A stretch of 64,000 nucleotides of DNA from NCBI GenBank assembly GCA_017504305.1, contig JAFVRJ010000001.1:13562-77561 (forward strand), given 5' to 3'. The notes beneath the pieces are model-generated. The model searched no databases, was not told the DNA's origin, and was given only the letters and a program-made list of their open reading frames with translations. This DNA is from Clostridia bacterium. GTDB taxonomy: Bacteria; Bacillota; Clostridia; Christensenellales; DTU072. The position numbers and the translations under genes were made by a program. Shown in pieces: positions 5,502-50,257 of this stretch. Positions within the stretch are counted from its first letter, which is position 1, and the number at the start of each line of letters is the position of its first letter.

Positions 5502-6605
5502 TTATGAGTTGGATTTTACGAGATAATCGTATATAAATCCTTCTATGTCGCCGTCCATTACGACGGTTACGTTGGTGTTTTCATACCCCGTACGGTGATC
5601 CTTAACAAGGGTGTACGGACAGAATACGTAGCTCCTTATTTGCGAGCCCCACTCTATCTTTTTGATTTCGCCCTTTATGGATTGCGCCTCCTCCATCTGC
5701 TCGCGCTCCTTGAGCTCGGCAAGCTTGGAGTATAACATACGCATGGCGGTTTCCTTGTTTTGCACTTGGCTCCTTTCGCTTTGACACCAAGTAATTATGC
5801 CCGTAGGCAGGTGCGTTATTCTAACAGCACTTTCCGTTTTGTTAACGTGCTGTCCGCCTGCGCCCGACGATCTGCAAGTATCTATCTTAAGATCTTCAGA
5901 GCGAATTTCGATTTCGGAGTTATCAATGATTTCCGGCATAACCTCGAGCGATGCAAAGCTCGTGTGTCTACGTTTGTTGGCATCGAACGGACTTATCCTT
6001 ACAAGTCTGTGTACCCCTTTTTCCGCCTTTAGGAACCCATATGCGTTAGTTCCTTCCAGCTTGAAGGTTACGCTCTTTATGCCGGCTTCGTCGCCTGCTT
6101 GGTAATCTATTTCACTCACCGCGTAACCCGCGCGCTCCGCGTAGCGCCTGTACATGCGGTATAACATCTCCGCCCAGTCTTGCGCTTCGGTACCGCCCGC
6201 GCCTGCGTGTAAGGTCAAAATAGCGTTCAAACCATCGTACTTGCCCTTAAGAAGCGACTCTAAAAAGAGCTTCTCCGAGTCCTTTTCAAGCGCCAAAAGC
6301 ATGCTACGGATTTCTTCCTCGATGCCCTCTTCTTCCATCATCTCGGCCATGTCCATAAGTTCTCTTACGTTTTGGCAGGTGGCTTTAAGAGCTTCGACGG
6401 TTTGCTCCTTGCGCTCGATTTCCGCAATACGTTGGTTTACCCTTTTTGCCTTTTCAACGTCCAACCAAAAGCCATCTTCCTCTTGCTTTTTGCGAAGCTC
6501 TATTAGCTCAACTTTAAGTTGAGGAAGATTCAATGCTTCCTCCGAGGTCTTAACCTCGGCGGTAAGCTCTTCAAGCTTTAATTTTTCGTTATAAAAGTCT
6601 ATCAT
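5502..6605 (-). CDS. prfB: peptide chain release factor 2 (uninterrupted, no programmed frameshift)
   Basis: SPF motif (RISPFDANKRRHTSF) and GGQ motif (SGAGGQHVNKTESAVRITH). A single 367-aa ORF. Confidence 0.95.
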   Translation of the reverse strand: MIDFYNEKLKLEELTAEVKTSEEALNLPQLKVELIELRKKQEEDGFWLDVEKAKRVNQRIAEIERKEQTVEALKATCQNVRELMDMAEMMEEEGIEEEIRSMLLALEKDSEKLFLESLLKGKYDGLNAILTLHAGAGGTEAQDWAEMLYRMYRRYAERAGYAVSEIDYQAGDEAGIKSVTFKLEGTNAYGFLKAEKGVHRLVRISPFDANKRRHTSFASLEVMPEIIDNSEIEIRSEDLKIDTCRSSGAGGQHVNKTESAVRITHLPTGIITWCQSERSQVQNKETAMRMLYSKLAELKEREQMEEAQSIKGEIKKIEWGSQIRSYVFCPYTLVKDHRTGYENTNVTVVMDGDIEGFIYDYLVKSNS

Positions 6606-9265
6606 TATTTACCGCAACAGTTCTTGTATTTTCTTCCGCTACCGCAGGGGCAAGGATCGTTACGACCTACCGACTTCGCCGGATCAGTGTTGCGGATGGT
6701 TACGCGACGTAGTTGCTCTTGAATAAAAATGTTCTTGCGCTCGATAACCGCTTCGATATCAATTTTTGCAAGGATGGTTGCCGTTCTATCTTGGATGTCC
6801 TCGATCATGCTATCGAACATTTCGAAGCCCTCTCTACGGTACTCCATAACGGGATCGCGTTGACCGAGTCCGCGTAGACCGATACCCTTGCGGAGTTGAT
6901 CCATCGCCGCAATATGATCCTTCCAATGGCTGTCTACTTGACGTAAAAGAAGGTTGCGCTCGGTGGATTTGAAGTCGATTTGTTCCTCCTCGGCACGCTT
7001 GATCTTCGCTTCATATTGCTCTACTACCGTTTCATAAACGTAATCTTCGATGCGTTGGTCGCTCATTTCGCTTATCAATTCCGCGGTAATAAGGTTGGTG
7101 TCTTTATTAAGAAGTCTGTTTTCAAGCTCATTGTTGAATGCAGCAATACGGCTTTCATCCATCTCTTCATCGGTTTCAAGATATTTGTCTACGATTTCCG
7201 ATACGATGGGCTCGAAGTATTTTAATACTTGTTCGTGAACGTCCTTTCCGCCCAAAACTTCGTTACGCTCTGCATAAATCATTTGGCGTTGCTTGTTCAT
7301 AACGTCGTCGTAATTCAAAACGCGCTTACGGATAGCATAGTTGTTTTCTTCACAACGCTTTTGAGCGGTTTCGATCAAACGGGAAAGTATACCCATTTGG
7401 ATGTTTCCGCCACCAAGCTCTACGGTTGCCTTTAGCTTATCGCCACCGAATAAACGTGCGATATCGTCCTCGCAAGAAAGATAGAAACAGCTCGAGCCCC
7501 TATCGCCTTGACGTCCGCTACGACCACGGAGCTGGTTGTCAATACGTCTTGCTTCGTGACGCTCGGTGCCGATTACGCGCAATCCGCCACGCTCAATAAC
7601 TTCAGCCTTTTCATCGGCGATTTGCTCTTTAGCTTTAGCTAAAAGTTCGGTGTAACGTGCGCGAGCCTTTACTTCGGCTTCCTCCTCTACTGCGTAGAAG
7701 GCGGTTGCAATTTCGATAAGTTCGGGTGCATAACCCTCTTTTGCCATTTGGGCGCGAGCAATAAACTCGGGGTTTCCGCCAAGCAAGATGTCCGTACCAC
7801 GACCTGCCATGTTGGTGGCGATGGTAACGGCATTGAGCCTACCGGCTTGTGCAATTACTTCCGCTTCTTCGGCGTGAAGCTTTGCGTTAAGAACGTTATG
7901 CTTGATGCCCTCTTTGCGGAGCTTTGCGGAAAGCTCTTCAGATGCTTGAACGCTGGTGGTACCAACAAGTACAGGTTGTCCCACTGCGTAGCATGCTTTG
8001 ATATCTTCAATAACAGCTTCGATTTTATCTTCACGCTTTGCGTAAACTTTATCGGGCTCGTCGAAACGAACTACCGGTTTGTTCGGGGGGATCGGTACTA
8101 CGTCAAGGTTATAGATACCGCGGAATTCCGCTTCTTCAGTAACCGCAGTACCCGTCATGCCCGAAAGTTTTGCGTACATACGGAAGTAGTTTTGGAAGGT
8201 GATGGTCGCGATGGTAACGCTTTCGCGCTTGATCTTGACGTTTTCCTTGGCTTCGATAGCTTGGTGCAAGCCTTCAGAGTAGCGACGACCTATCATTTTA
8301 CGTCCGGTGAACTCGTCAACGATAACGATTTCGCCGTTTTCAACGATGTAGTCTTTGTTGGCATGCATTAAGAAGTTTGCGCGAAGTGCAGTGTTGATGC
8401 GAGTGCCGAGCTCTGCTTGCTCGCTATCGGAAAGGCTGGATTGGTTAAAGTAGCGGTCGGCCTTTTCAAGACCTTCTTCCGATAGGAAGGCGTGATTGTC
8501 CTTTTCTTCCAAAACAACGTCTTCTTCAAGGTTAAGGCGCTTTACGAAGCGATCGACCTTAACGTACTCGTCGGAAGATTGTCCGCTCATGCCGGAAATG
8601 ATAAGAGGAGTACGAGCTTCGTCGATCAAGATGGAGTCAACTTCGTCGACGATAGCGTATGCGTGTCCGCGTTGAACAACGTGATCGAGCTCGACTTCCA
8701 TGTTATCACGGAGGTAGTCGAAACCGATTTCGTTATTGGTCGCGTAAGTGATGTCTGCTGCGTATGCGGCTTTACGTTCCTCTTTTGACATTTCGCGAGT
8801 AACGACGCCTACGGTAAGACCAAGGAAGCGGAAGATTTTACCCATCCACTCCGCGTCACGTTTTGCAAGATACTCGTTGACGGTAACGATGTGAACACCC
8901 TTACCGTTCAAAGCGTTAAGATATGCAGGGAGCGTTGCAACCAAAGTTTTACCTTCACCGGTTTGCATTTCGGCAATACGGCCTTGATGCAAAACGATAC
9001 CGCCAATGAGTTGTACGCGATAATGGCGCATGTTGAGAACTCTCTTGCCTGCCTCGCGAACTACTGCGAAAGCTTCGGGGATAAGATCGTCAAGCTTGGT
9101 GCCGGCAGCAACTCTTTCTTTGAACTCTGCGGTTTTAGCGCAAAGAGCTTCGTCGGAAAGAGCGGAAATTTCCGGCTCCAATGCCTCGATTTTATCGGCA
9201 ATAACTTCTAATTTTTTAAGCTGTTTTTTCTTTTCATTTACAAATAAGAAATCAAGAAAACCCAT
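6605..9265 (-). CDS. secA: preprotein translocase ATPase SecA
   Basis: 886 aa. DEAD-like motor motifs (MQTGEGKTL, DEVDSILIDEARTPLIISG, TNMAGRGTDI) and a C-terminal zinc finger CPCGSGRKYKNCCGK. Confidence 0.97.
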   Translation of the reverse strand: MGFLDFLFVNEKKKQLKKLEVIADKIEALEPEISALSDEALCAKTAEFKERVAAGTKLDDLIPEAFAVVREAGKRVLNMRHYRVQLIGGIVLHQGRIAEMQTGEGKTLVATLPAYLNALNGKGVHIVTVNEYLAKRDAEWMGKIFRFLGLTVGVVTREMSKEERKAAYAADITYATNNEIGFDYLRDNMEVELDHVVQRGHAYAIVDEVDSILIDEARTPLIISGMSGQSSDEYVKVDRFVKRLNLEEDVVLEEKDNHAFLSEEGLEKADRYFNQSSLSDSEQAELGTRINTALRANFLMHANKDYIVENGEIVIVDEFTGRKMIGRRYSEGLHQAIEAKENVKIKRESVTIATITFQNYFRMYAKLSGMTGTAVTEEAEFRGIYNLDVVPIPPNKPVVRFDEPDKVYAKREDKIEAVIEDIKACYAVGQPVLVGTTSVQASEELSAKLRKEGIKHNVLNAKLHAEEAEVIAQAGRLNAVTIATNMAGRGTDILLGGNPEFIARAQMAKEGYAPELIEIATAFYAVEEEAEVKARARYTELLAKAKEQIADEKAEVIERGGLRVIGTERHEARRIDNQLRGRSGRQGDRGSSCFYLSCEDDIARLFGGDKLKATVELGGGNIQMGILSRLIETAQKRCEENNYAIRKRVLNYDDVMNKQRQMIYAERNEVLGGKDVHEQVLKYFEPIVSEIVDKYLETDEEMDESRIAAFNNELENRLLNKDTNLITAELISEMSDQRIEDYVYETVVEQYEAKIKRAEEEQIDFKSTERNLLLRQVDSHWKDHIAAMDQLRKGIGLRGLGQRDPVMEYRREGFEMFDSMIEDIQDRTATILAKIDIEAVIERKNIFIQEQLRRVTIRNTDPAKSVGRNDPCPCGSGRKYKNCCGK

Positions 9266-9297
9266 CTAAATACCTCGTAATTTTTATTTCAACGCAT

Positions 9298-9327
9298 ATT
9301 ATAGCACACATACGCGCGCTTACGCAA
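9298..9327 (-). promoter_or_regulatory. putative sigma-A promoter for secA-prfB-serS
   Basis: On the minus strand: TTGCGT (9327-9322), an 18-nt spacer, and an extended -10 TGCTATAAT (9306-9298). It lies about 35 nt upstream of the secA ATG. Confidence 0.55.
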
Positions 9328-9330
9328 TAG

Positions 9331-9455
9331 TTAAAACTCGCAAATTGGCGACCTCCTTAAAAAAGCGTACTTATTGCTCGGTCATTTACATAGGTAAACT
9401 CTCGTCGCAATTTCGCACGCCTTTTGTCGTATCTCATCCAATTTGCGAGTTTTAA
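9331..9455. repeat. 125-bp element bounded by perfect 18-bp inverted repeats (MITE-like; related to the array units)
   Basis: TTAAAACTCGCAAATTGG at 9331-9348 is the exact reverse complement of 9438-9455. The interior contains AGCGTACT and GGTCATTTAC, which resemble the conserved loop words of the repeat family. Confidence 0.7.
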
Positions 9456-9585
9456 AACGCTATGATATTGCTTTTTTGCCTCATAATACAAGTAAAAATG
9501 TTTTGTTGAAGTTTGTCGATTAAAAACTATGTTTTTAGGGTAACGCTTGTTGTGTTTTGGGTGTGTATGCATTATATGCTTGAGC

Positions 9586-9958
9586 ATATGGACCACAAAG
9601 AAGCAAGCAAGACGAATAAATACAAAAAACCACAACGAGAGCGTGTTTGACGTACGTGACTTGTAGAGGGCTTTGATTTTGTGGTGTATTGCGGTGCCCA
9701 TGCGTGGGATTAGACCGCGTAGAAGCAAGCAAGACAAATAAATACAAAACCCCACGACGGGAGTGTACTTGAACGTACATGACCGAGTGAGGTTTTTCTT
9801 GTTTGGGAAGATTGCGAGGTTTGTGCGTGGTATTAAACCGCGTAGAAGCGAGCAAGACGAAGAAAACGGCGCACTCCCCGATATGAGCGTACTTGGTCGT
9901 ACGTGATTGAGGGGGTGCGCCTGTTTGATGCAGTATTGCGAAGCTTATCCGCGGTTTA
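9586..9958. repeat. tandem array A of the ~123-bp hairpin repeat family (3 units plus degenerate remnants upstream to about 9500)
   Basis: Unit starts are TGGACCACA 9589, TAGACCGCG 9711 and TAAACCGCG 9834. All share GAAGC(A/G)AGCAAGAC and GAG(C/T)GT(A/G)(C/T)T-N4-CGTAC(A/G)TGA(C/T) cores. The array ends in the inverted copy CCGCGGTTTA at 9949-9958. Confidence 0.9.
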
Positions 9959-11777
9959 AAACGGCTTTGATACGACGCACACCCGCCGAAGAACTTTGCT
10001 CTTTTTGAATTTTGAACTTGCCGAGTTCGGAAGTCTTGGATGCATGAGGTCCGCCACAGATTTCCTTGCTGTAGGTGCCGATGGAGTAAACTTTTACGAG
10101 CTCGCCGTAACGATCACCGAATACGCCGATAGCGCCTTGTTCACGAGCCTTTTCAACAGGCATTTCTTCGCAAGTAACGGGGATATCGGATGCGATAACT
10201 GCGTTAACTTCATCTTCAACGGCCTTGATTTCTTCAGGAGTCAAGGGGCGAGAGAAGTTAAAGTCTACACGGAGTCTTTCAGAGGTGATGTTACTACCCT
10301 TTTGCATAACGGTTTCGTCGTTCAAAACCTTGCGGAGAGCTGCAAGCAAAATATGGGTTGCGGTGTGGTAGTTGGTGGTTGCTTCGTTTTGCTCGGTAAG
10401 ACCGCCCTTTGCAGCTTGAGCTTGTGCCTTGGAAAGTTCTTGGTGTGCTTTGAATGCTTCGTTAAATCCCTTTTCATCAACGGTCAAACCTCTTTCGTCT
10501 GCAAGCTCGATGGTTAGCTCGAGGGGGTATCCGAAGGTGTCGTATAATCTAAAGGCTTGTTTGCCGGAAATCTCGGTTTCGGGTACGTAACTCGGGTCTT
10601 TTTGGGACATAAACTCGTTCTTACGTTGCATACCGGAAATAATTTTTTCGAACTCTTTCATACCGCCGGCAAGGGTAACTTCGAACTTTTTAATCTCTTT
10701 GGTGATCTCATCTAAAATGTAATCTTCCTTTTCTACAAGGAGGGGATAGGCTTCGTCGTAAATCTTTTCGATAAAGATTTTAGCAACTTCACACATCTCG
10801 GTTGCGGGGATGCCGAGATTCTTTGAGTATCTGATAGCACGGCGAAGAAGTCTTCTCAAAATGTAGCCTGCACCGGTGTTGGAAGGAACGATTCCGTTGA
10901 CGTCACCGATAAGCATAACAGCAGTTCTCGTGTGGTCCGCGATAATTCTCATCGCCTTGGTATCCGCTTCGTTTACGCCGTATGCTTTGCCCGATGCGCT
11001 CTCTAAATGAGCGATAGCACCTGCAAAAAGGTCGGTCTTGTAACCATCGTCCAATCCGTTTAAGAAGAGAAGCAATCTATCAAGACCGAAGCCGGTATCA
11101 ACGTTTTTGTTCTCGAGTTCTTCGTACTTACCGCCTTCAAGTTTCTTGTATTGCATGTAAACGTCGTTGCCGATTTCAACGTATCTGCCACAATCACAGT
11201 TAACGTCGCAAGTGTCACAGCAAGGATTATCGTGACGGGGATAGAACCACTCGTTATCAGGTCCGCAAGGAGTGCCTACGGTACCTTCGAGTTCCCACCA
11301 GTTATTGGATTTATCTAAATAGAAAATGTTTTCGTCCTTGATGCCGAGTTCTTTGAGGTAGGATGCCGTTTCTTCATCGCGAGGAGCAGCGTTATTGCCC
11401 TCGAAAACGGTGGAGCAAATCTTGTCCTTATCAAATCCGAATACTTTTGTCAAAAGTTCAAACGACCAAGCGGTTTTTTCCTTTTTGAAATAATCGCCCA
11501 AACTCCAGTTACCCATCATTTCAAAAAAGGTAAAGTGGGTAGCATCGCCAACGGAGTCGATATCAACCGTTCTTACGCAACCTTGAACGTTGCAAAGTCT
11601 GGTGCCCATGGGGTGCTTTTTACCAAGAAGATAGGGCATGAGCGGTTGCATGCCGGCAACGTTAAACATTACGCCGGTAGTACCGTCGCCAATAAGCGAA
11701 ACTGCACCGATATTGGTGTGGCCTTTGCTTTCGTAAAACTTAATCCATTTTTCTCTTAATTCTTTTGATGTAATCAT
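9945..11777 (-). CDS. alaS: alanine--tRNA ligase, short form (610 aa; catalytic, tRNA-recognition and editing domains; no C-Ala domain)
   Basis: Motifs FTFFEMMGNWSLGDYFK, DTGFGLDRL, editing HTATHILLAAL and CGGPH. The protein ends ...AGVRRIKAVLNRG right after the editing domain. Confidence 0.9.
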   Translation of the reverse strand: MITSKELREKWIKFYESKGHTNIGAVSLIGDGTTGVMFNVAGMQPLMPYLLGKKHPMGTRLCNVQGCVRTVDIDSVGDATHFTFFEMMGNWSLGDYFKKEKTAWSFELLTKVFGFDKDKICSTVFEGNNAAPRDEETASYLKELGIKDENIFYLDKSNNWWELEGTVGTPCGPDNEWFYPRHDNPCCDTCDVNCDCGRYVEIGNDVYMQYKKLEGGKYEELENKNVDTGFGLDRLLLFLNGLDDGYKTDLFAGAIAHLESASGKAYGVNEADTKAMRIIADHTRTAVMLIGDVNGIVPSNTGAGYILRRLLRRAIRYSKNLGIPATEMCEVAKIFIEKIYDEAYPLLVEKEDYILDEITKEIKKFEVTLAGGMKEFEKIISGMQRKNEFMSQKDPSYVPETEISGKQAFRLYDTFGYPLELTIELADERGLTVDEKGFNEAFKAHQELSKAQAQAAKGGLTEQNEATTNYHTATHILLAALRKVLNDETVMQKGSNITSERLRVDFNFSRPLTPEEIKAVEDEVNAVIASDIPVTCEEMPVEKAREQGAIGVFGDRYGELVKVYSIGTYSKEICGGPHASKTSELGKFKIQKEQSSSAGVRRIKAVLNRG

Positions 11778-16651: not shown

Positions 16652-18727
16652 TTATGTTGCCGGTTTTGCGACCATAATTTCGCCAGCCTTGGTTGCACTC
16701 ACTTCTTCGTCGTTTAACGTATATAACTTCCAGCCTTCGGGAAGAAGGATGTTTGAAAGCTCTAAATTGTCGTACGAAGGCATAATATTGAAGCTACTTC
16801 CGGCATAATCCCATATGACGATAAAGGCGTCGTTTGTTCCAAAAACAACGGGGATTTCTTGATAAGAGCCTGCAAACGCATATTCCGTGCCCTCAAACTT
16901 TACGGTGTCGGCAGATGCATAAATGGCAACGCCATAGTTTACGCCTTCGAGCGTTCCGCCTTTTATCGTAAGCGTGCCGGAGTTGTTAACGGCAACGTCG
17001 TTAATGCCTATGAGTTTACCTCCGTTCATCGTGAAGACTGATGCTTCTTCGTTGGCAACGGTCATATATCCGGCGCCAGTTATGGTTCCGCCGTTCAAGA
17101 TGAGCGTGCCTTGATTTTTGATGGTGGTATTGTTGGTGCTTGTAATCGTTCCGCCGTCAACGGTTATGGTGCCGTCTAAATTGTGTATTGCGTTACTCGT
17201 GCCGTCGATAGTTCCGCTCTTGAGGGTTAGCTCTCCGTAGTTCATTATTGCCCAATCGCCCGTGCCTTTGATTGTACCGCCACCAATAGTAATGTTAGCG
17301 TTATTTTGCATTACGTATGAGCCCGTACCCGAAAGGGTATAGCCTGCAAGGTCAAAGTTGATGGGTTGATCTGCCGTGGCGTGAACGATGCTTGCGCCGA
17401 TATTAATATTTGCACCGAGGGTTACGTTACCGCCCTTTTGTAAAGCTTTTTGAAGCTCTTCGTAGGTATCGATAACTCCGTCGTCAACGATTTCCTCTTT
17501 AGCTATTATAGTTTCCTCTGCTTGGACCGTTTCGATGGCTTCGTCGTCATAATCATAGAGCGCCCAGCCCTCGGGGAGTATTACGTTAGAAAGAGGCATG
17601 AAGCTCGTTGCCGGTACGATTTTAAAGCTTTCGCCCTCAAATTGAGATATGTCGATACGCGCCTCGTTTGCATACCAACGTACGGGAGCGGTAAGACTAA
17701 TAAGATTTAGGTTGCCACCGACAAATTTTACCTTGCCACTAATTGCAAGAACGGCATAAGAACCGCTGATAGTTCCGTTAGCAACTGTCAACTCGCCTTC
17801 GTTGATGATTAAAGTGGTTGCGGTGCCCGAAAGAGTATAACCGGCTAAATTGAAGTTTGCCACAACGCCTGAAGGCACGTGAGCGCTTTCTATACCGAGA
17901 TTGATATTTGCGCCGAGGGTTACGTTACCGCCCAGCTCAAGTGCCGCTTGCAAGCCCTCGGCCGTCAAAACGAGGTAGGTATTGGTATCTCTATAGTAAA
18001 TATAACCGAACGAATACGGGCAGTTATCGCAAACGCCGTCTTCGTTGAAGTCTTCGTGGTTGGGTTTAGCCTCAATTGCTATTTGGCTACATGAGATACA
18101 ATATTCTGCAGTGGTGCAATCATCGTCTCCTACTTGAGGAGTGTGGGCTGGCTTCGCCTCAATCAGTACCGTGGGACAGTAAACGCATACTACCGCGGTA
18201 GTACAATCGTCGTCATCGCTTTCTTCTACGTGTTGGGGCTTGGCATACGTTAAGATAGTGGGGCAGTGGCTACAAGTTATTGCCGTGGTGCAATCGCCGT
18301 CATCCTCGTTTGCAATGTGGTTGTCCTTTGCCGGAGTAATTACCGTATGGCAAACGTTACAAACGGTAGCAGTGGTGCAATCGCCATCGTCAAGTGTCGG
18401 GACGTGGTCGGGGTTTGCATGAACTATTACCTCACCACATTGCTTGCAAGTTATTGCCGTGGTGCAATCGCCGTCGTCATCCATCGGGGAGTGTCCGGAG
18501 GAAGGTTCCCCGACTGTACCACAATTATTGCAAATTGCAGGATTGTTGCAGTCTGCCGGCTTCCATTGGTGAGATACCGCTCTACCTTGACCGCAAGAGT
18601 TGCAAGTTTCATCGCAATCATTGTCGTATACGTGGCTACAATCGGTCTCGCCACAAGCCGTTAAGCATAACGTTATGCATAGCGCAATAGCGCACGCTAT
18701 AAAAAGTGCCTTTAGTGTCTTTTTCAT
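16652..18727 (-). CDS. Cys-rich surface lipoprotein: five ~29-aa C3H repeats plus two beta-helix-like Gly/Thr-rich modules
   Basis: Lipobox LCLTAC. Repeats follow the pattern H-x5-DDGDCTTA-x2-C-x2-C (for example DDGDCTTAITCKQCGEVIVHANPDH). This is followed by duplicated segments of the type GGNVTLGANINxG...LAGYTLSGT. Confidence 0.7.
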   Translation of the reverse strand: MKKTLKALFIACAIALCITLCLTACGETDCSHVYDNDCDETCNSCGQGRAVSHQWKPADCNNPAICNNCGTVGEPSSGHSPMDDDGDCTTAITCKQCGEVIVHANPDHVPTLDDGDCTTATVCNVCHTVITPAKDNHIANEDDGDCTTAITCSHCPTILTYAKPQHVEESDDDDCTTAVVCVYCPTVLIEAKPAHTPQVGDDDCTTAEYCISCSQIAIEAKPNHEDFNEDGVCDNCPYSFGYIYYRDTNTYLVLTAEGLQAALELGGNVTLGANINLGIESAHVPSGVVANFNLAGYTLSGTATTLIINEGELTVANGTISGSYAVLAISGKVKFVGGNLNLISLTAPVRWYANEARIDISQFEGESFKIVPATSFMPLSNVILPEGWALYDYDDEAIETVQAEETIIAKEEIVDDGVIDTYEELQKALQKGGNVTLGANINIGASIVHATADQPINFDLAGYTLSGTGSYVMQNNANITIGGGTIKGTGDWAIMNYGELTLKSGTIDGTSNAIHNLDGTITVDGGTITSTNNTTIKNQGTLILNGGTITGAGYMTVANEEASVFTMNGGKLIGINDVAVNNSGTLTIKGGTLEGVNYGVAIYASADTVKFEGTEYAFAGSYQEIPVVFGTNDAFIVIWDYAGSSFNIMPSYDNLELSNILLPEGWKLYTLNDEEVSATKAGEIMVAKPAT
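18050..18505 (-). repeat. in-frame 87-bp tandem coding repeats (C3H modules)
   Basis: GGTGCAATCGCC(G/A)TC recurs at about 18288, 18375 and 18462, an 87-bp period that corresponds to the DGDCTTA repeats. Confidence 0.7.
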
Positions 18728-20013: not shown

Positions 20014-23000
20014 CTAAACCGTTTCGTAAACAACTTCTATTGCCGTAACTTTTGCTTGACCATTGGTTTTTGTTCCCGTATTACCAACGCCAAACGTAAT
20101 AGATGTTGAATTTACCTCCACTATGGTTCCAGAGCTTACATTAGAACCATTATACGTTAAACACCCTGTGTTTGAAACGTTATATGTTATTTTAACCGAA
20201 ACTATTTTATATCCTTCCGCGACTTCTATTTTGAAACTCGGTGATTCCGTTTGGTATAGCCTGTACTCAGAACCACTATCGTAGTACTTACCAGTATTAT
20301 CTTTGCCACTTGAGGTTACGGTTACAACATCATCTAATTTAAATGAACTATATTTATTAGAATTAGACCAACCGTTTTCCGTCTTTAAAGTTGCGATGGT
20401 TTTGTTTACGGTTGTCTTTACCCCGGCGGGTGTTTCAGGTTCAGACGATCCCATATCCTTATCGCAAGTATCGCACTTGTTGTCGGAATCGTTATCTGCG
20501 TGCTCGCCGGTTGCAGGGATTTCTTCGCCACCTGAAATATAGTTTCCGCAATCATTACACCAAATACCAGCGGTTATGCCAGCCTCAATACAGGTAGGTG
20601 CAACTTCTTCCTTTTCTTCGGTGTTTTCGTGTTCGCCGGTTGCAGGGATTTCTTCGCCACCTGAAATATAACTTTCACAATCATTACACCAAGTACCGGC
20701 CTCTCTTCCTTCTTCAGCGCACGTGGGAGCTTTATAGGCATCTTCTCTTACGTCAGTATGCTTGCAAGGTGGAGCAATATAAATTACTTCGATTGCGGTA
20801 ATACGAACTTGACCATTTGTTGCCGTGCCGGTATTACCTACTCCAAAGGTAATAGTTGTATTGTTAACGTTAACTACACTTCCCGACGTTACGTTGTTAC
20901 CATTGAGCGTTAGGATGCCGGTCTTGTCTCTGCTATACGTTATCTTAACCGAAACGATACTACCACTACCACCCTCTGCCACAGATAGCGTTAAGGCAGG
21001 ATTTTCGGTTTGATAAAATCTCCAGTTGGTACCGCTTGTATAATATTTACCGGTATTTCCACCGCCTTTAGCCGTTGCTGTAATGTTTTTATCAATATTT
21101 ACAGCTTCGTATTTTGTGTCGTTTGCCCAACCAGTGGCATCGGCATAGTCTGCGATAGTTACGTTTACCGTCTTCTTCGTCGAGGCACAAGTGGGGCAAA
21201 CGTTACCTTGAGTAAAGTCGTGGTCTTTTTTACTATCAGCTACAACGTGGCCACAGCCTTCGCGCTTGCAATAAGCATCTTGCATGCAAGTTGCTTCAAC
21301 CATATCGTGACCAAGAGCAGAGTCTTCTTCAACGTAACCACAGCCTTCGCGTTGACACTTGGCATCTGTAACACAGTCGCCAGTTGTCATATCGTGACCA
21401 AGTGCGGGAATCTCGGTTTGAGCGACTAAAACCTCGTTGCATACCGAGCAGTGCTTGCCTTCGGTAAGACCGCTTTCAGTACAAGTTGCGGCTACGGCTT
21501 GGTCGACAACTTCAGAGTGACCATTCTTTGGAACTACGTTGTCCGTCTTTGTTCCATTACATAAAGTGCAAGTATAAGTGGTGTAGCCGTCTGCAGTACA
21601 AGTAGGTGCGGTTACTACGCCATCATCATACTCGTGATCGCTTACTATGTAAGCGCCCTCAACAAGCAAGCTGTGAACACCTTCTACAAGCTTATTGGTA
21701 TAGGTGCCGTCTCCTTGATGGTTTGCAGGGTTGAACGCTACGTACTCACCGCCGTATACGTTGATTTCTGCCCAAATCTCTTCATCTTCACCTTCCCAAA
21801 TATCAAGGGTGTAAAGGTATCCGTAGCTATTATCTTCCGCAACGAACTTGCCATCGAAAACGTTGATTACGGAGTTGGTGCGTGCGTAAATAGTGGTGCA
21901 TCCGGATGATACGTATTCGCCACCATAGATGTTGACGGTTGCGCCGTCAATAGCGGAAAGTACGCATACCGTTTGGGCTTCACTGTGTGTTGCCAAGAGT
22001 TTGCCGTCGCCGTTAATATTAAACGTTACGTCGCCTTGTACGAGGAATACGTCACAAACGGACTTTGTGCCGACTACAGACTCGGTGCTCTTTGCAACGT
22101 TAGATGTAATGGTCTTACCATTGAGGTATAAGGTTGCATCTTTAGTGATGGTAATAACGCCATTGTCAAGAGTGATATTGTCTTCCAAAATAACCGCGTA
22201 GCCACCACCGTTGAGGACGGCCTCAAGGTCGGATGCATTGGATACTGCAATGGTTGCAGTGTTATCAACGTCATCTAATACTTGAGAAGTTCCGCAGGCG
22301 CACTCTCTAACGAGCTTTAATACGCCGTCGATGATTTGATAAGACTTGATATTGTGGTTGTGATTGAGTTTAGAAATAGGACGGGTTACAACGTGGGTTG
22401 CATCGTTTGCGCAAACTTGCTTTTCTTCACCTTCTGAAGTGCAGGTTGCAGGGGTTACTACTTCCCATGCGCCATATTCGTGAGCATTTTCATCGACGTC
22501 AACGTAATTGTCTTTTATTTCGTGACCACAACCACAAGTATAAGTGGTATAACCTTGTGCCATACAGGTGGGTGCGGTTACTACGCCAGTATCGTAATTA
22601 TGACCAGTAGCATCAATAGGCTCGGTCTTGGTGTGTGCGCTATCGTTTGCGCACTCGTAACCCATAGTGCCTTCAGTAGTACAGGTAGGCTCTAAAATAA
22701 CGCCGGTTTCTTGCCAATCGTGACCGAGCTTTGCTTCGGTGTAATCACAATTATCGCGCTTGCAATAACCATCATTTTCGCAATCAGCTTCTACCATATC
22801 GTGGCCAAGAGGATCACCAAAAGTAAAGGTGCTGGAAAGGTTTTCGTCATGTTCGCCACATACGCAAGAAGTGTAATATACGGCTCCCGATTCGCAAGTT
22901 GCCGGAGCCTTAAGGTGCTTTTCTTCTGCATTTCTATTCTCGTAGTTGTGGCCTGCAGGCTCGCCTACTTCAAAGGTTTTCGAAAGGGTTTCATCAAAAG

Positions 23001-23730
23001 CTCCGCAAACGCAAGACTTGTAGTAGATTGCACCGAAAGTGCAGTTTGCTCCGCTCTTTAAGTACTCGTCGTCAACCTTTTCTTGATCGTAAACGTGGTC
23101 TTTAAGTTCACCGTATGCGTTACCGCAAACAGCGCAAATTGCAAGCTCATCACAACGGTTACTGCCACCTGAACAAGCTTCGGTTATTACGTGGCTATCA
23201 TCGTTAGCGCATACCTTTTTGTGGTTGCCGTTTTCGCCTTGAATCCACTCGCCGTATGCGTGTCCTACCGCACTCACTTCTTCAGTCTTTGTATGGCTAC
23301 CGTCGTTTAAGCAGGTATAGGTTTTAACGCCCGTTCCCTCACAGGTTGGTGCGGTGGTTACCTTGCCTTCATCCCAACTGTGTCCAAGAGCAGGTATTAC
23401 CGTACCTTCCTCTTGATAATCACAACGAGAGCATCCTAGCTTGCCAGTGAATCCTTCCCCTTCGCAAGTAGCGCTAATACCGCTATTGTCTTTAACAACG
23501 AGATCGTGACCAAGAGGCTCGATATCAACTTGTTGGCTCTTTCCACATACCGAACATCTTTGGAGTGCTTTGCCGGACTCTGTGCAAGAAGCCCCTCCCA
23601 TTACTATCTCGTTTTCCCAAACGTGCTCGGTGCATTGTTCTCCCTCTAAATCAACGGGGGAACAGGCACTAATAGTAAGTGCGAGCGCGCCAATTAGAAC
23701 GACTACCAAGATAATTAAGCGACGTGACAT
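20014..23730 (-). CDS. giant Cys/His-rich surface lipoprotein (about 1238 aa) with many GH-x-C-x-C modules, a beta-helix-like middle and two C-terminal ~125-aa repeats
   Basis: Start at 23730 (AAGGAGAA RBS; MSRRLIILVVVLIGALALTISAC lipobox). Modules of the type LGHSWDEGKVTTAPTCEGTGVKTYTCLNDGSHTKTEEVSAVGH recur. There is a duplicated domain TVN(V/K)TIA...NTGKYY.SG...R.YQTE.P...V.(S/G)VKITY. Confidence 0.7.
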   Translation of the reverse strand: MSRRLIILVVVLIGALALTISACSPVDLEGEQCTEHVWENEIVMGGASCTESGKALQRCSVCGKSQQVDIEPLGHDLVVKDNSGISATCEGEGFTGKLGCSRCDYQEEGTVIPALGHSWDEGKVTTAPTCEGTGVKTYTCLNDGSHTKTEEVSAVGHAYGEWIQGENGNHKKVCANDDSHVITEACSGGSNRCDELAICAVCGNAYGELKDHVYDQEKVDDEYLKSGANCTFGAIYYKSCVCGAFDETLSKTFEVGEPAGHNYENRNAEEKHLKAPATCESGAVYYTSCVCGEHDENLSSTFTFGDPLGHDMVEADCENDGYCKRDNCDYTEAKLGHDWQETGVILEPTCTTEGTMGYECANDSAHTKTEPIDATGHNYDTGVVTAPTCMAQGYTTYTCGCGHEIKDNYVDVDENAHEYGAWEVVTPATCTSEGEEKQVCANDATHVVTRPISKLNHNHNIKSYQIIDGVLKLVRECACGTSQVLDDVDNTATIAVSNASDLEAVLNGGGYAVILEDNITLDNGVITITKDATLYLNGKTITSNVAKSTESVVGTKSVCDVFLVQGDVTFNINGDGKLLATHSEAQTVCVLSAIDGATVNIYGGEYVSSGCTTIYARTNSVINVFDGKFVAEDNSYGYLYTLDIWEGEDEEIWAEINVYGGEYVAFNPANHQGDGTYTNKLVEGVHSLLVEGAYIVSDHEYDDGVVTAPTCTADGYTTYTCTLCNGTKTDNVVPKNGHSEVVDQAVAATCTESGLTEGKHCSVCNEVLVAQTEIPALGHDMTTGDCVTDAKCQREGCGYVEEDSALGHDMVEATCMQDAYCKREGCGHVVADSKKDHDFTQGNVCPTCASTKKTVNVTIADYADATGWANDTKYEAVNIDKNITATAKGGGNTGKYYTSGTNWRFYQTENPALTLSVAEGGSGSIVSVKITYSRDKTGILTLNGNNVTSGSVVNVNNTTITFGVGNTGTATNGQVRITAIEVIYIAPPCKHTDVREDAYKAPTCAEEGREAGTWCNDCESYISGGEEIPATGEHENTEEKEEVAPTCIEAGITAGIWCNDCGNYISGGEEIPATGEHADNDSDNKCDTCDKDMGSSEPETPAGVKTTVNKTIATLKTENGWSNSNKYSSFKLDDVVTVTSSGKDNTGKYYDSGSEYRLYQTESPSFKIEVAEGYKIVSVKITYNVSNTGCLTYNGSNVSSGTIVEVNSTSITFGVGNTGTKTNGQAKVTAIEVVYETV

Positions 23731-23949
23731 ACCCTTTTCTCCTTTGTGAGTATTAAAAAACCACAGGCGCAGTGTGCCTGTGGTCATAGAGTTAGTTTTG
23801 TGCGGTTGAAAGAGTATCCATTTGGAAACGGAAACAATGCATGCGTTTTAATCGTAAAAAGCAATGCTTACCCACCTCGATACTCCTTCCTCAACGATGT
23901 ACTATATAAAGTATAACAACTATAGTATTATAAAGCAAGTAAAAGTTAC

Positions 23950-25019: not shown

Positions 25020-26396
25020 TTACGCTTCTTGTTCGCTTGATACGTACAAGGTTTCGGGATGCTTCTTTTGGTAGAGATATGCGCCGATAATCGGGATAAG
25101 GGTAAGTAGAGCTACGCAAGCTGCAATAAGGAATAAGTGCCACGAGGGAGTGTAACCGGGAACGACCGCGCCGTTTTGCTCCATCTCGGCAATATAGATG
25201 CCGAGGTTATTGACGATAGGCTCGGCAATAACGGGGCCGGAAATCATCGGTACGAGCACGTAGAACACAAGTCTTACGCCCTCAAGCTGTCCGCGTTGGG
25301 ATTCAGGATAGAGGTTTTTACACCAAATCATAAGCGCTTGATAGATGCACATATATCCACCGCCGACAAAGATAACGCCGAGTATTACTACTGCGGTCAT
25401 GGCAGCACCCGTTCCACTCAACGCGCCGGTGATACTAATTATACCCAAGCCTACAATGTTCATAAGCAATGCAACGATTAGCACGGGAACAAACTTTTGT
25501 TTGTTGATAAACTTGCCTGCGATGAGGGTGAAGGGGATAGCAATAACAAGACCAACACCAAGCCATACACCGGCGATACCGGTATCATATCCCAAGGAGT
25601 GGATGAAGTAAATGGTCATGTAAGGGAAGTAGATGTTAAAGCTAATGAAGAACATTGCAAAGATGCAAAGAACTATAAGGAGTAGCTTATTTTGCCAGAG
25701 TAATTTAAAGTTAAAGGCTTGAGCGAATTGATGCCAAAAGCCCTTTTCATCAACGTTGGGGCGGAGGGTGGGAGCATCTTTAACCGCCCACATGCAGTAA
25801 ACGCCTACCAAAATAACGAAGGTGCCCATGATGAGGAAGAAGGCGAAGTAGCCTACCGCATCGATGATGATACCGCCGATAAGAGTTCCTACGATGGTTG
25901 CAAGAACGGGTTGAACTGCAATAACAGCGCCGAGAGGTCCACGGTTTTCGGGGGTGGTGATATCGGTAAGGTGGGGGTTGAAGCCGGCATCGTTACCGAG
26001 AGATCCGAAGAAGGACATAAGAGCATCTGCAACAACGACCATCAAGCCGAGAGCTACGACGTTGCCTGCAAGGGAGCTACTTTCTGCGGTAAAGAAATCT
26101 ACAACGCCGAAAAGTATAGTGAATATACCCCAGAAGATATAACCCCAAACGATAAAGGGTTTACGTTTACCGAGGCGATCGCTCCACGTGCCGGAAAGGA
26201 AGGTGGAGAAGGTGGTAACGATTGCAGAAACGGAAACCATTGCGGTAATAATCCACGGAACTGCACCGATTTTACCATAAACGAAGGTGTTAAACCATTG
26301 GTTTTCGATATTCCAAGCGAGCTGACCTGCAAGGCCTGCAACCCAAATAACGATCCACGTTTTAGCACCGAGGCCGGATTTCTTTTTTTCGGACAT
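25020..26396 (-). CDS. MFS-type transporter (458 aa)
   Basis: About 12 TM helices. It has the loop motif WSDRLGKRKPF (D-R-x-G-R-R-like) typical of MFS/GPH transporters. Confidence 0.75.
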   Translation of the reverse strand: MSEKKKSGLGAKTWIVIWVAGLAGQLAWNIENQWFNTFVYGKIGAVPWIITAMVSVSAIVTTFSTFLSGTWSDRLGKRKPFIVWGYIFWGIFTILFGVVDFFTAESSSLAGNVVALGLMVVVADALMSFFGSLGNDAGFNPHLTDITTPENRGPLGAVIAVQPVLATIVGTLIGGIIIDAVGYFAFFLIMGTFVILVGVYCMWAVKDAPTLRPNVDEKGFWHQFAQAFNFKLLWQNKLLLIVLCIFAMFFISFNIYFPYMTIYFIHSLGYDTGIAGVWLGVGLVIAIPFTLIAGKFINKQKFVPVLIVALLMNIVGLGIISITGALSGTGAAMTAVVILGVIFVGGGYMCIYQALMIWCKNLYPESQRGQLEGVRLVFYVLVPMISGPVIAEPIVNNLGIYIAEMEQNGAVVPGYTPSWHLFLIAACVALLTLIPIIGAYLYQKKHPETLYVSSEQEA

Positions 26397-26512
26397 AGCA
26401 TTATCCTCCTTGCTTTATGATTTCATTGTAATACAAGAGGATATTTAAGTCAATATTGATTTAGCTCGACATCCCACCGTGGGAGCATGTCGACGTCTTC
26501 GTTCTTCCTGCA

Positions 26513-26893
26513 TATAAGACCGCGGAGAAGCGAGCAAGACAAACAAAAATAAAAAGCCCCCAATGGGAGCGTACTAATACGTACGTGACCTGCAGGGTGC
26601 TTTTATTTGGTTATGATATACTGCGATAATCATATGCCGTCGGTTAGACCGCGGAGAAGCAAGCAAGACAAAGAAAAGGGCGCAGCCACGACACGAGCGT
26701 ACTTGACGTACGTGACCTGCAGGGAGCTTTTATTTTGTGAAGTATTGCGATGGTTATATCGGCCGATTAGACCGCAGAGAACCGAGCAAGACAAACAAAT
26801 ACAAAACCCCACGACGGGAGTGTACTACGACGTACATGACCGAGTGGGGCTTCTGTTTATTTGTGAAGTATTGCGATGGTTATATGCGGTCTA
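26513..26893. repeat. tandem array B of the hairpin repeat family (3 units; periods 129 and 123 bp)
   Basis: Unit starts are TAAGACCGCGG 26515, TAGACCGCGG 26645 and TAGACCGCAG 26768. The array ends with the inverted GCGGTCTA at 26886-26893, whose CTA is the complement of the M20 gene's TAG stop codon. Confidence 0.9.
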
Positions 26894-28324
26894 CTTGTAA
26901 GAGCGTATAAACTCTTTATAAAAACAAACACACTCGCCTACGTTCCAAACCTTAATATGCTCGTTGGCATTGTGGATGGTGGCGTATTGCTTGGAATCAA
27001 GGTCTATGGGAGCAAAACGAAGGATGGCGTCGGCTACGTCGCCAAGGTGGCGAGCATCGGTGCCGGCAGTTAAGATGAAGGGCGAAACTATTACGTCGGG
27101 GAAGTTTTTGTTAAGGACGGCTTTAAGCTTCTTAAACTGCTCGGAATCCACCTTTGAGGGCACGCAATAGTCACGTTCGGTTTCCCTAACTTCGACATTG
27201 TACTTCTTGGCAATCTCTTTAAAAGCTTCGATTTCCTTGTATAGAGTATCTTCCCTAATGCATCTGAAGAAGGCGGTTGCCTTTGCTTCAAGCGAAGTGC
27301 CTTCGATCTTTGTAAAGCTCATGGTCGTCGATAGCATTGCGCCTGCAACGGGGCTTACTTTACCCATAAGGTTAAGGAGTAGCTTTTTGAAAATGCAGAA
27401 GTTACTAAAGACAATCCTTAACGGATAAGGCATATACGGGGCGTGGGTGCGGAAGGTCGCTTCCACCTCGGGAGCAAAGCCCTTTTTGAATATCTTGCTA
27501 TCTTTGACTTCAGAAATGAAAGCGGAAAGATTATCGATAGCGTTTTCTTTGGTGGGGTTGAGACCTACGTGGCCCTTTTCACGCTTGGTGGCAACGCACT
27601 CGTAACGATGACGTCCCTTTTCGTGGACGGCTACCATTGCGCTCTTTTCCTTGACACCGGGCATCATCTTCTCGGTGATAGCTCCGCCCTCGTCAAGAAC
27701 TACGTCAAAGTGAAGACCTCTTTCCAAAAAGTATTTGTGGACCTTGGGGAATCCGTCACCGGCAACTTCTTCGTTGTTGGACGATCCTATAAAGACGTTA
27801 ATACCCTCAAAGTCGTATCCCTCTTTGAGAAGCTCCTCAACCGCCATAAGCTCTGCAAAAAGCGGTGTCTTGGTGTCGATGGTCCCCCTGCCGTACATCG
27901 CTCCGTCAACGACTTTAGCTTCAAATGCGGGATGCTCCCACTCCCCTTCATCGATTACTACGTCGTGGTGGGACATCAAAAGAATATTCTTTACGGCGTT
28001 TTTACCGCTTATTTCGTATAGAAAACAGCCGTCAAAATCGTGCTTAACTGCCTTTGCGGTTAAAGTGGGAAAACGATCTTCCAATACTTTATAGAATTTT
28101 TTGTACTCATCGGCATAAGTTCCTTGCTCGTCGTAAACGGTTTTGCAACGGATCATGTCGGCAAGAACTTCAGTATATTCTTTGAGTTTTTCTTCCGAAA
28201 CGTTTTTGCGGGTAGCGTTTACCGTGACGCGAGCTCTACTCGAAAGAAGGGCTTTTATGAGGATATACGCTAAAAATATAACGGTGCATCCGCCAATAAC
28301 GGAGCCGACAATTATACCGCCCAT
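26891..28324 (-). CDS. M20 family metallopeptidase with N-terminal membrane anchor
   Basis: LLMSHHDVV, GRGTIDTKTPL and SSNNEEV(A)GDG motifs match the ArgE/DapE/CPG2-like family. An N-terminal TM helix is present. Confidence 0.8.
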   Translation of the reverse strand: MGGIIVGSVIGGCTVIFLAYILIKALLSSRARVTVNATRKNVSEEKLKEYTEVLADMIRCKTVYDEQGTYADEYKKFYKVLEDRFPTLTAKAVKHDFDGCFLYEISGKNAVKNILLMSHHDVVIDEGEWEHPAFEAKVVDGAMYGRGTIDTKTPLFAELMAVEELLKEGYDFEGINVFIGSSNNEEVAGDGFPKVHKYFLERGLHFDVVLDEGGAITEKMMPGVKEKSAMVAVHEKGRHRYECVATKREKGHVGLNPTKENAIDNLSAFISEVKDSKIFKKGFAPEVEATFRTHAPYMPYPLRIVFSNFCIFKKLLLNLMGKVSPVAGAMLSTTMSFTKIEGTSLEAKATAFFRCIREDTLYKEIEAFKEIAKKYNVEVRETERDYCVPSKVDSEQFKKLKAVLNKNFPDVIVSPFILTAGTDARHLGDVADAILRFAPIDLDSKQYATIHNANEHIKVWNVGECVCFYKEFIRSYK

Positions 28325-44130: not shown

Positions 44131-44287
44131 AATGGTGCCTCCTATATAATAGTAGTGAGTAATAATATTAAGATTATAATACAAAATTGATAATGTCAAG
44201 ATAAAATTAAGTAATCCACCCTACCATTATCTGAAAAATGCGCATTTTTTAGTACATTTTTGCAAAAACACAGCATGGTTTATGAGG

Positions 44288-44557
44288 ATATAGACCGCGA
44301 AGAAGCAAGCAAGAGGAATACAAATAAAAAGCCCCCAATGGGAGTGTACTTTGCGTAAATGACCAAGTGGGATTTGCTTGTTTGTGAAGTATATCGCTAA
44401 AATTATTAAACTGCTAAACCGCATAGTTTAGATGATAGACGAACAAAAATAAAAATCCCCCAATGGGAGCGTACTACATCGTACGTGACCTGCAGGGGGA
44501 TTTTATTTTGTGATGGATATCGCTAAAATATGCGGTTTAGCTAAAATATGCGGTTTA
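44288..44557. repeat. array C of the hairpin repeat family (one full unit, one 5'-deleted unit, duplicated terminal segment)
   Basis: TAGACCGCGAAGAAGCAAGCAAGAG begins at 44291. The second unit has a perfect stem AAAATCCCCC/GGGGGATTTT. The terminal CTAAAATATGCGGTTTA is duplicated (44524-44539 and 44541-44557). The final TTA is the complement of the TAA stop of the 466-aa gene. Confidence 0.85.
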
Positions 44558-49942: not shown

Positions 49943-50257
49943 ATTTCGTTCTCCTTTATGCGCATAAATTATATCGTTTTCGGGTACGTTATGCGCAGGG
50001 TAAATTTTCACGTGATTATCATATCACGCGCTAAAATAAAAAGCAATCTTAATAAATATTTTAATTAAAATTTTAATTTTTATTTATATTTTTAGATTAC
50101 TAAATTTTTACTGCACTATTTATATTATTTTTTTAAATATTAATAATATGGGCTTGCTCTTGCCACCTTTTTTGTGGTAACATTACCCTGCCACCTTTCG
50201 ACGTGGGAACCCGATAAAAAACTACCCGATCAACTCGGCAAAATTAAGGAATATCGT

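Follow-up and report, generated by a model that had tools for sequence, protein, structure and literature searches.

Among the described repeats closest to the one considered here, the REPIN and REP/BIME elements of Pseudomonas and Enterobacteria, which are mobilised by RAYTs (REP-associated tyrosine transposases), are extragenic hairpins of ~100 bp with conserved arms and a drifting, compensated stem that occur both dispersed and in ordered clusters; REPINs combine conserved ends with a variable hairpin spacer showing compensatory changes, tandem clustering and persistence within lineages (PMC3116915). Many bacterial repeats are located at the 3′ ends of genes, where they are co-transcribed and influence mRNA stability, and a cis effect on mRNA has been reported for ERIC (PMC3184786). 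In a 64-kb stretch of a Clostridia bacterium genome (order Christensenellales, contig JAFVRJ010000001.1; the whole stretch is hereafter called the window), we characterised a family of hairpin repeats, three units of which form an array (array A) beside the gene alaS. The family is real, strongly constrained and apparently undescribed. We read it, with a probability of roughly 0.55, as a new REPIN/ERIC-like proliferating long-hairpin repeat of gut Christensenellales that is transcribed as a hairpin of 3′ untranslated regions (UTRs) or intercistronic regions, array A being one tandem cluster of it. The Christensenellales are widespread, heritable gut bacteria known mostly from metagenome-assembled genomes (MAGs); to our knowledge, neither a repeat family nor a structured motif has been described in them, and we know of no RAYT system in the Gram-positive genomes concerned.

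The window contains eight plus-strand units, each ~123–133 bp long, in three arrays, together with a ninth, diverged copy on the minus strand (Table 1); throughout, the forward strand of the family is the plus strand of the window. The first-pass annotation, made from the window alone, had proposed a hairpin repeat family at three loci, and pattern, shuffles, covariance model and folds agree on this. The blocks it had listed for array A (9586–9958) are all present, namely ATTA(G/A)ACCGCG, GAAGC(A/G)AGCAAGAC, an A-rich tract, GAG(C/T)GT..N4–5..CGTAC(A/G)TGA and GTATTGCG, as are stem arms that differ between copies yet stay complementary, and an alignment of all eight units displays the common blocks. 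A degenerate pattern derived from the units (GCAAGAS-N22–40-GAGYGTRY-N4–5-CGTAMRTGA) matched the window seven times, always on the plus strand, with 0 matches in each of 100 shuffles. With a covariance model trained on 49 diverse units, the window units scored 48–115 bits (E values 1e-10 to 1e-31), and on the plus strand every one of them folds as a single hairpin, long and imperfect, with z between −2.7 and −9.2 relative to shuffles. A1 is the most degenerate unit of array A, while A2 was masked by the overlap rule in the covariance-model scan of the window; an identical copy in L001 scored 73.1 bits. At 26.5 kb and 44.3 kb, Tandem Repeats Finder and a repeat finder picked up further members of the family, the latter program returning A2 and B3 as 87 % identical and B1 and C2 as 89 % identical over 79 nt. 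We also considered a CRISPR array and rejected it, as the units of 123–133 bp abut or overlap and leave no spacers.

From the outside in, the consensus consists of a variable outer stem of 8–10 bp, a 3×3 internal loop, a basal module, a middle stem and an apical module. The basal module is near-invariant (AGATGCGAGCAAGAC opposite GTATTGCGAnGnATATA, with GCAAGAC pairing with GTATTGC around a G·A mismatch) and the apical module is near-invariant (GGGAGCGTAC-loop-GTACGTGACC; on the plus strand GG, a tandem G·A/A·G, a G·U pair, a CGTAC/GTACG stem and a loop of 5–6 nt), while the middle stem is hypervariable and the outer stem locus-specific. RNAalifold, run on an alignment of 103 units made with MAFFT only, returned 26 pairs, 21 of them with compensatory changes. 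Among 150 model-aligned copies from ~80 species, 93.9 % of the cells formed pairs (70.8 % after shuffling, 27–42 % with slid partners), 28 of the 32 pairs had changed on both sides and double-change cells numbered 1035 as against 268 in shuffles, counts that favour structure somewhat because the alignment was fitted to the model and the sequences are related; the independent MAFFT alignment and the slide control concur with them. The hairpin is maintained by compensatory change over ~80 species, which upholds the earlier proposal that the hairpin itself is under constraint.

Three findings go beyond what had been noted from the window alone: the spread over the order, the one-way anchoring to stop codons and the diverged copy in inverted orientation. 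A scan with the degenerate pattern of one genome per bacterial and archaeal species returned at least 116 matching loci from at least ~80 assemblies (counted by accession prefix). Among the loci listed, nearly all belong to gut MAGs named Christensenellales, Christensenella, Borkfalkia, Scatosoma, Coproplasma or Clostridia, obtained from rabbit, chicken, deer, goat and human. The covariance model gave 154 hits in 800 kb of these loci and a further 25 in the remaining ones, and tandem arrays of 2–4 units were also seen in L009, L019, L023, L081, L083 and L094. The family thus extends beyond the three loci of the window: the profile scan finds many copies in relatives, and the number of units per array varies among strains. 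One locus, L039 (CANRJO010000044.1), is binned as 'Alphaproteobacteria bacterium' and holds a unit 98 % identical to those in a MAG of Clostridia that comes from the same series of rabbit samples; the label is probably a binning error. Distant long hairpins with an apical CGTAC-loop-GTACG and an AAGAC...GTATT frame (L019:888-1001, L061:4687-4797, L073:289-418) suggest, from their sequence, that a wider superfamily of related repeats may exist.

No unit matched Rfam 15 at the gathering threshold and none gave a match of note at E ≤ 10, the two weak hits in 9250–10000 (E > 2) belonging to unrelated families. The units had no match in plasmids, phages or viral contigs, and a phage or plasmid origin was rejected on the lack of matches in those collections; A2 and A3 had no BLASTn match in 5,426 complete E. 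coli genomes, and a literature search returned no description of such a repeat in Christensenellales. The novelty claimed for the family in the first-pass annotation is therefore consistent with every collection searched.

Units are anchored to stop codons in one direction. The right-hand neighbouring gene is convergent in 93/117 cases, and in 94/144 units the stop of a convergent open reading frame (ORF) lies between −25 and +40 nt from the outermost 3′ base, with a sharp peak of the stop-to-unit distance at −2 to +3 and a small peak at −12. With stricter ORF calls, a stop abuts the 3′ end of 63 units and the 5′ end of 1. Where the local gene majority, a crude proxy for replication direction, points the same way as the unit, abutment is 8 to 0, so that orientation is tied to the adjacent ORF and not to the replichore alone. 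The next gene usually starts 1–300 nt past the unit, indicating that most units are intercistronic or in 3′ UTRs, and in many cases a next gene that apparently belongs to the same operon begins within 1–100 nt. The fixed orientation implies that the RNA normally made would correspond to the forward strand's reverse complement. All copies on a long contig lie on one strand (5/5 contigs). TAA accounts for 81 % of the abutted stops, only a moderate enrichment over the background of 64 %. A model with TA/TAA as target site fitted the three junctions in the window and was rejected, as non-abutting units do not share a terminal TTA/TAA.

In the window, each array lies directly 3′ of a minus-strand ORF (alaS for A, an M20 peptidase gene for B and an ORF with a weak Big_1 match for C), the next minus-strand gene past the array being secA, a gene for a major facilitator superfamily (MFS) transporter and a large ORF, respectively. 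The last unit of every array extends to the stop codon of the upstream gene: the TAG of the peptidase gene (26891–26893) is the end of the B3 outer stem GCGGTCTA, and the TAA of the ORF at array C is the end of GCGGTTTA and is carried by the second copy of an 18-bp tandem duplication (Table 1). In alaS, the stop-reaching motif is out of frame and translation therefore continues 9 nt into unit A3, where the 3′ arm of the outer stem, CCGCGGTTTAA, codes for the final AlaS residues (..LNRG) ahead of the stop. AlaS homologues terminate in RRIKA(V/I)L plus 1–3 residues, and the NRG tail in the window is repeat-encoded. Array A had been described as the spacer between alaS and secA; it does lie between the two genes, but it also overlaps the 3′ end of alaS, the stop of which (9945–9947) is inside A3. 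At the orthologous loci L044, L071, L101 and L026, the 3′ arm of the outer stem likewise consists of the last 3–4 codons of the ORF (..CLFL or ..CLIL, followed by the stop), and the intergenic 5′ arm tracks synonymous Leu changes (CTG, CTA, TTG). That the outer stem might be a prior host terminator with the core inserted in its loop has no support in the window, where the same stem, (T)AGACCGCG, occurs at three unrelated loci; a search with RACCGCR for paired solitary outer-stem hairpins outside arrays returned none, and the outer stem is absent from the alaS site of the sister lineage described below.

Copies resemble each other within genomes, and the alaS site varies among close relatives. 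The nearest relative of a unit at another locus is in the same genome in 35/68 cases, with 1.8 expected. Contigs with identical AlaS carry 1, 2, 2 or 3 units in differing order; several contigs end within arrays, as do all contigs returned for the neighbour genes of arrays B and C, so part of the variation in unit number could stem from assembly. In one lineage, whose AlaS is 95 % identical, there is no unit, and the alaS–secA spacer, 218 nt long, instead holds a canonical terminator (AAAACTCACTCGG-AATT-CCGTTGTGAGTTTT) upstream of the secA promoter-like site; a second lineage, at 92 % AlaS identity, shows a single diverged unit where alaS stops, and lineages at 83–86 % AlaS identity have another downstream gene and no unit. 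These differences indicate gain, loss and rearrangement of units within short spans of time; elsewhere, units are kept at their loci across species. The element can serve as a strain-typing marker, and it is a known source of assembly breaks, given the contigs that end inside arrays.

Some further observations concern the same site. In L130:4243-4827 and L135:4260-4830 (~85 %-identical AlaS), a PHP-domain gene and a resolvase gene, not secA, follow alaS, and synteny breaks precisely where the window has the repeat array. In the 95 % sister lineage, the 5′ arm of the terminator in the spacer (L127:3320-3480), ACAAGAAAACTCACTCGG, matches the mid-stem of A2 at 18/20 positions; the local score of 29 compares with 15.5 ± 2.3 (maximum 23) for the null, with only the 5′ arm aligning and 16 comparisons made, and this terminator may be either the relic of a unit that has lost its apical module or a coincidence. 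Between array A and secA lies the inverted copy, which has an outer stem of ~20 bp (TTAAAACTCGCAAATTGG/CCAATTTGCGAGTTTTAA), is found in every strain contig reaching that site and contains AAGGAGG on the secA strand. It is followed by a promoter-like TTGCGT-N18-TATAAT upstream of secA (9298–9327, minus strand), which is below the threshold of the simple promoter scan; that scan reported no promoter-like site on either strand in 9200–10050. The promoter-like site is kept in the 95 % lineage, with a similar TTGCGC ... TATACT in the 92 % lineage, and this conservation suggests that secA would have its own promoter and alaS would need its own terminator.

In the reading that we favour, that of a proliferating REPIN/ERIC-like repeat, the unit would multiply within genomes in trans, in the manner of REPINs and MITEs (miniature transposable elements with inverted repeats), by means of an enzyme encoded elsewhere, and arrays would lengthen and shorten through unequal recombination. 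The reverse complement of the unit would be transcribed as the 3′-UTR or intercistronic hairpin of the upstream gene and act as a 3′-end structure, as a terminator in the AT-rich lineage of the window and as an exonuclease barrier or processing site elsewhere. Terminator-like hairpins with U-tracts are present on the gene strand inside A2, B1 and B3 and are the sole such sites reported in the scanned regions 9200–10050 and 26350–26950; in the lineage of the window, alaS and the other upstream genes most likely have in the unit their terminator or 3′-end hairpin.

The family behaves like the REPIN, ERIC and MITE repeats yet lacks the defining features of each. Units share with REPINs the conserved arms, the covarying spacer and the occurrence both dispersed and in tandem. 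The basal boxes AGATGCGAGCAAGAC and GTATTGCGAnGnATATA are inverted relative to one another, but neither is itself palindromic as REPs are. Units further differ from REPINs in having a second conserved module at the tip, a locus-specific outermost stem, stop anchoring in a single orientation and a Gram-positive host, and no RAYT was seen in ~1 Mb of flanking sequence, a search that did not take in whole genomes. ERIC/IRU (~127 bp, Enterobacteriaceae) and the MITE-like Correia, RUP and bcr1 repeats share with the units their size, imperfect palindromes, transcribed intergenic sites at gene 3′ ends and conservation across a family or order, and a cis effect on mRNA like that of ERIC would be expected of them; nevertheless, A2 and A3 have no sequence similarity to anything in the 5,426 E. 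coli genomes, the units have no consistent TA flank or target duplication, and their orientation to the upstream ORF is almost absolute, whereas ERIC is found in both orientations. As regards MITEs, the outermost stem of the units is variable, the conserved inverted boxes are subterminal and there is no shared terminal TA/TAA/TTA or target duplication. The SPRITE repeat terminators of S. pneumoniae are also repeated conserved hairpins just past ORFs, and the DUS pairs of Neisseria and the mycobacterial TRIT are repeat-derived terminators as well. Units resemble such terminators in that the mid-stem is flanked by A- and U-tracts in the lineage of the window and a canonical terminator replaces the unit in the sister lineage, but the hairpin is ten times longer than that of an intrinsic terminator and most family members have no U-rich tail.

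Several observations weigh against a proliferating repeat that is transcribed as a gene-strand hairpin. There is no consistent terminal TA/TAA and no target duplication, a TTA end being present in 23/73 non-abutting units. A clustering of 807 ORFs from ~1 Mb of flanks, without a Pfam scan and not extending to whole genomes, showed no transposase or other conserved gene family alongside the units; the ABC ATPase superfamily formed the sole large cluster. The outer stem, which is locus-specific, is paired at orthologous loci with the final codons of the ORF and tracks their synonymous changes, so that it looks like in-place constraint or palindrome extension and not like a fixed transposon end. 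A run of at least five U in the 9 nt after the outer stem occurs in 31/146 units (~21 %); the earlier suggestion of an intrinsic terminator on the gene strand is thus supported in part, by the hairpins in A2, B1 and B3 and by the canonical terminator at the sister site. The RNA-like features, moreover, lie on the strand that runs antisense to the adjacent gene: in 122/127 units the forward strand has the more stable fold (mean −50.2 versus −40.9 kcal/mol), and it bears the invariant G·U and tandem G·A pairs and has unpaired positions that are 71 % purine and 40 % A. These asymmetries conflict with the scarcity of G·U, which makes up 160 of about 4700 variable-pair cells (A·C, 89) and is mostly confined to three positions, a share of ~3 % that is unusual for a purely RNA-level constraint. 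The scarcity points to complementarity being maintained on both strands or through a process at the DNA level, e.g. template switching inside the palindrome. We also considered whether an RNase III-prone orientation is selected against; this has no support, since pair number and the length of the longest helix are almost equal on both strands.

One tentative alternative is that the unit, instead of being a selfish mobile repeat, is a cis-acting RNA element of 3′ UTRs and intercistronic regions that the host selects: its hairpin, closing over the stop and bound by a protein or cut by an RNase, would set the stability of the upstream mRNA, termination or the coupling to the downstream gene, and copies would arise by duplication and gene conversion. 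An orientation that strictly follows the adjacent ORF (63 units against 1, and 8 against 0 where most nearby genes run the other way) fits such an element, as do units that persist behind orthologous genes in several species with co-changing intergenic and coding arms, two modules that are near-invariant over an order, a downstream gene start usually 1–300 nt past the unit and the canonical terminator at the same site in the sister lineage. Nonetheless, the gene-sense strand is the less RNA-like one in both G·U versus A·C counts and purine content, the copies cluster by genome and differ in number among strains, their upstream genes are unrelated, and arrays of 3–4 units are hard to square with a tuned regulator. 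More speculative still is a new class of strand-specific ORF-end signal across an order, a two-module hairpin closing over the stop and again not a selfish repeat, the informative strand of which would be antisense to the gene and could be read by a putative HUH/Y1 enzyme, a recombinase or an RNA- or single-stranded DNA-binding factor; its outer stem could be rebuilt at each locus to pair with the ORF end.

We consider it unlikely that the unit is a strand-specific single-stranded DNA hairpin site for an HUH/Y1 transposase or a tyrosine recombinase, be it an IS200/IS605 end, a RAYT-bound REP or an attC-like site, with the strand antisense to the ORF as the active one. The strand with the better structure is the one antisense to the ORF, and the hairpin has its base over the stop codon, which is the bottom-strand geometry of attC; attC sites are likewise hairpins of 60–140 nt, conserved in structure and variable in sequence, at the 3′ end of ORFs and often over the stop, with the antisense strand structured, and the attC sites of Vibrio (VCRs) are 123–126 bp long. 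A unit size of 120–135 nt, few G·U pairs, position-specific conserved G·T and G·A mismatches that could be recognition marks, conserved subterminal boxes inside variable ends and same-contig copies on one strand (5/5 long contigs) are also in keeping with such a site. Yet the attC R boxes RYYYAAC and GTTRRRY are both present in 0/146 units in either orientation, the flanks are housekeeping genes in conserved synteny and not cassettes, there are no cassette arrays and no integrase, and no ORFs separate tandem units; the flanks show no enrichment of any recombinase or transposase family, and orientation follows the adjacent gene, not the local gene majority that stands in for replication direction. 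That each unit is an independent plus-strand small-RNA gene, and each array a cluster of such genes, is very improbable: the plus strand has the composition of a structured RNA (40 % A among unpaired positions, conserved G·U, tandem G·A) and the more stable fold in 122/127 units, but array units abut or overlap and leave no room for promoters, none of which was reported in 9200–10050 on either strand, the flanks upstream of units show no conservation, a plus-strand transcript would run antisense into the upstream ORF and there is no conserved terminator.

Near-absolute one-way stop anchoring combined with an RNA-like antisense strand is unusual among bacterial repeats and points to a specific mechanism. 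The element is a candidate terminator or mRNA-stability module for Christensenellales and a test case for the persistence of long hairpin repeats in Gram-positive genomes.

Table 1. Repeat units, arrays and adjoining genes in the window (fold energies and z-scores are for the plus strand where a z-score is given)
Feature	Positions	Strand	Evidence and remarks
Array A	9587-9964	+	3 head-to-tail units
Unit A1	9587-9714	+	covariance model 47.9 bits; pattern match 9607-9659; left end ATATGGACCAC
Unit A2	9709-9840	+	pattern match 9729-9782; mid-stem AAAACCCCAC/GTGAGGTTTT; fold −48.5 kcal/mol, z = −6.5
Unit A3	9832-9964	+	covariance model 115.2 bits; mid-stem GGCGCACTCCCC/GGGGGTGCGCC; fold −61.5 kcal/mol, z = −7.1
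Array B	26514-26899	+	3 units
Unit B1	26514-26642	+	covariance model 66.6 bits
Unit B2	26643-26765	+	covariance model 70.4 bits; mid-stem GC-rich like that of A3
Unit B3	26766-26899	+	covariance model 106 bits; fold −59.1 kcal/mol, z = −9.2
Array C	44283-44545	+	2 units
Unit C1	44283-44415	+	pattern match 44309-44362; alignment of units
Unit C2	44413-44545	+	covariance model 61.7 bits
Diverged inverted copy	9328-9454	-	covariance model 30.5 bits, E about 2e-6; fold −55.3 kcal/mol
18-bp tandem duplication, GCTAAAATATGCGGTTTA x2	44522-44557	+	Tandem Repeats Finder, 100 % match; copies outer 3′ arm of C2
alaS	9945-11777	-	NCBIfam PRK01584, E 8.9e-230
secA, gene downstream of array A	6605-9265	-	NCBIfam PRK12904, 1134 bits
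M20-family peptidase gene	26891-28324	-	NCBIfam M20 family matches; Pfam Peptidase_M20
ORF with weak Big_1 match	44555-45955	-	stop codon at end of array C

Other repeats in the window are of a different kind. Periodic direct repeats of 87 bp and 129 bp at 18090–18481, 20489–20730 and 21260–22811 lie in the large minus-strand ORFs 16652–18727 and 20014–23787 and probably encode repeated protein domains. A 173-nt segment is present three times (43871–44043, 45693–45865 and 49689–49861; 61–81 % identical) in minus-strand ORFs that neighbour one another; two of these ORFs have AhpC-TSA/Redoxin matches, and the copies appear as paralogous domains flanking array C. Finally, the plus-strand ORF 50174–57478 (2434 aa) contains short internal repeats.

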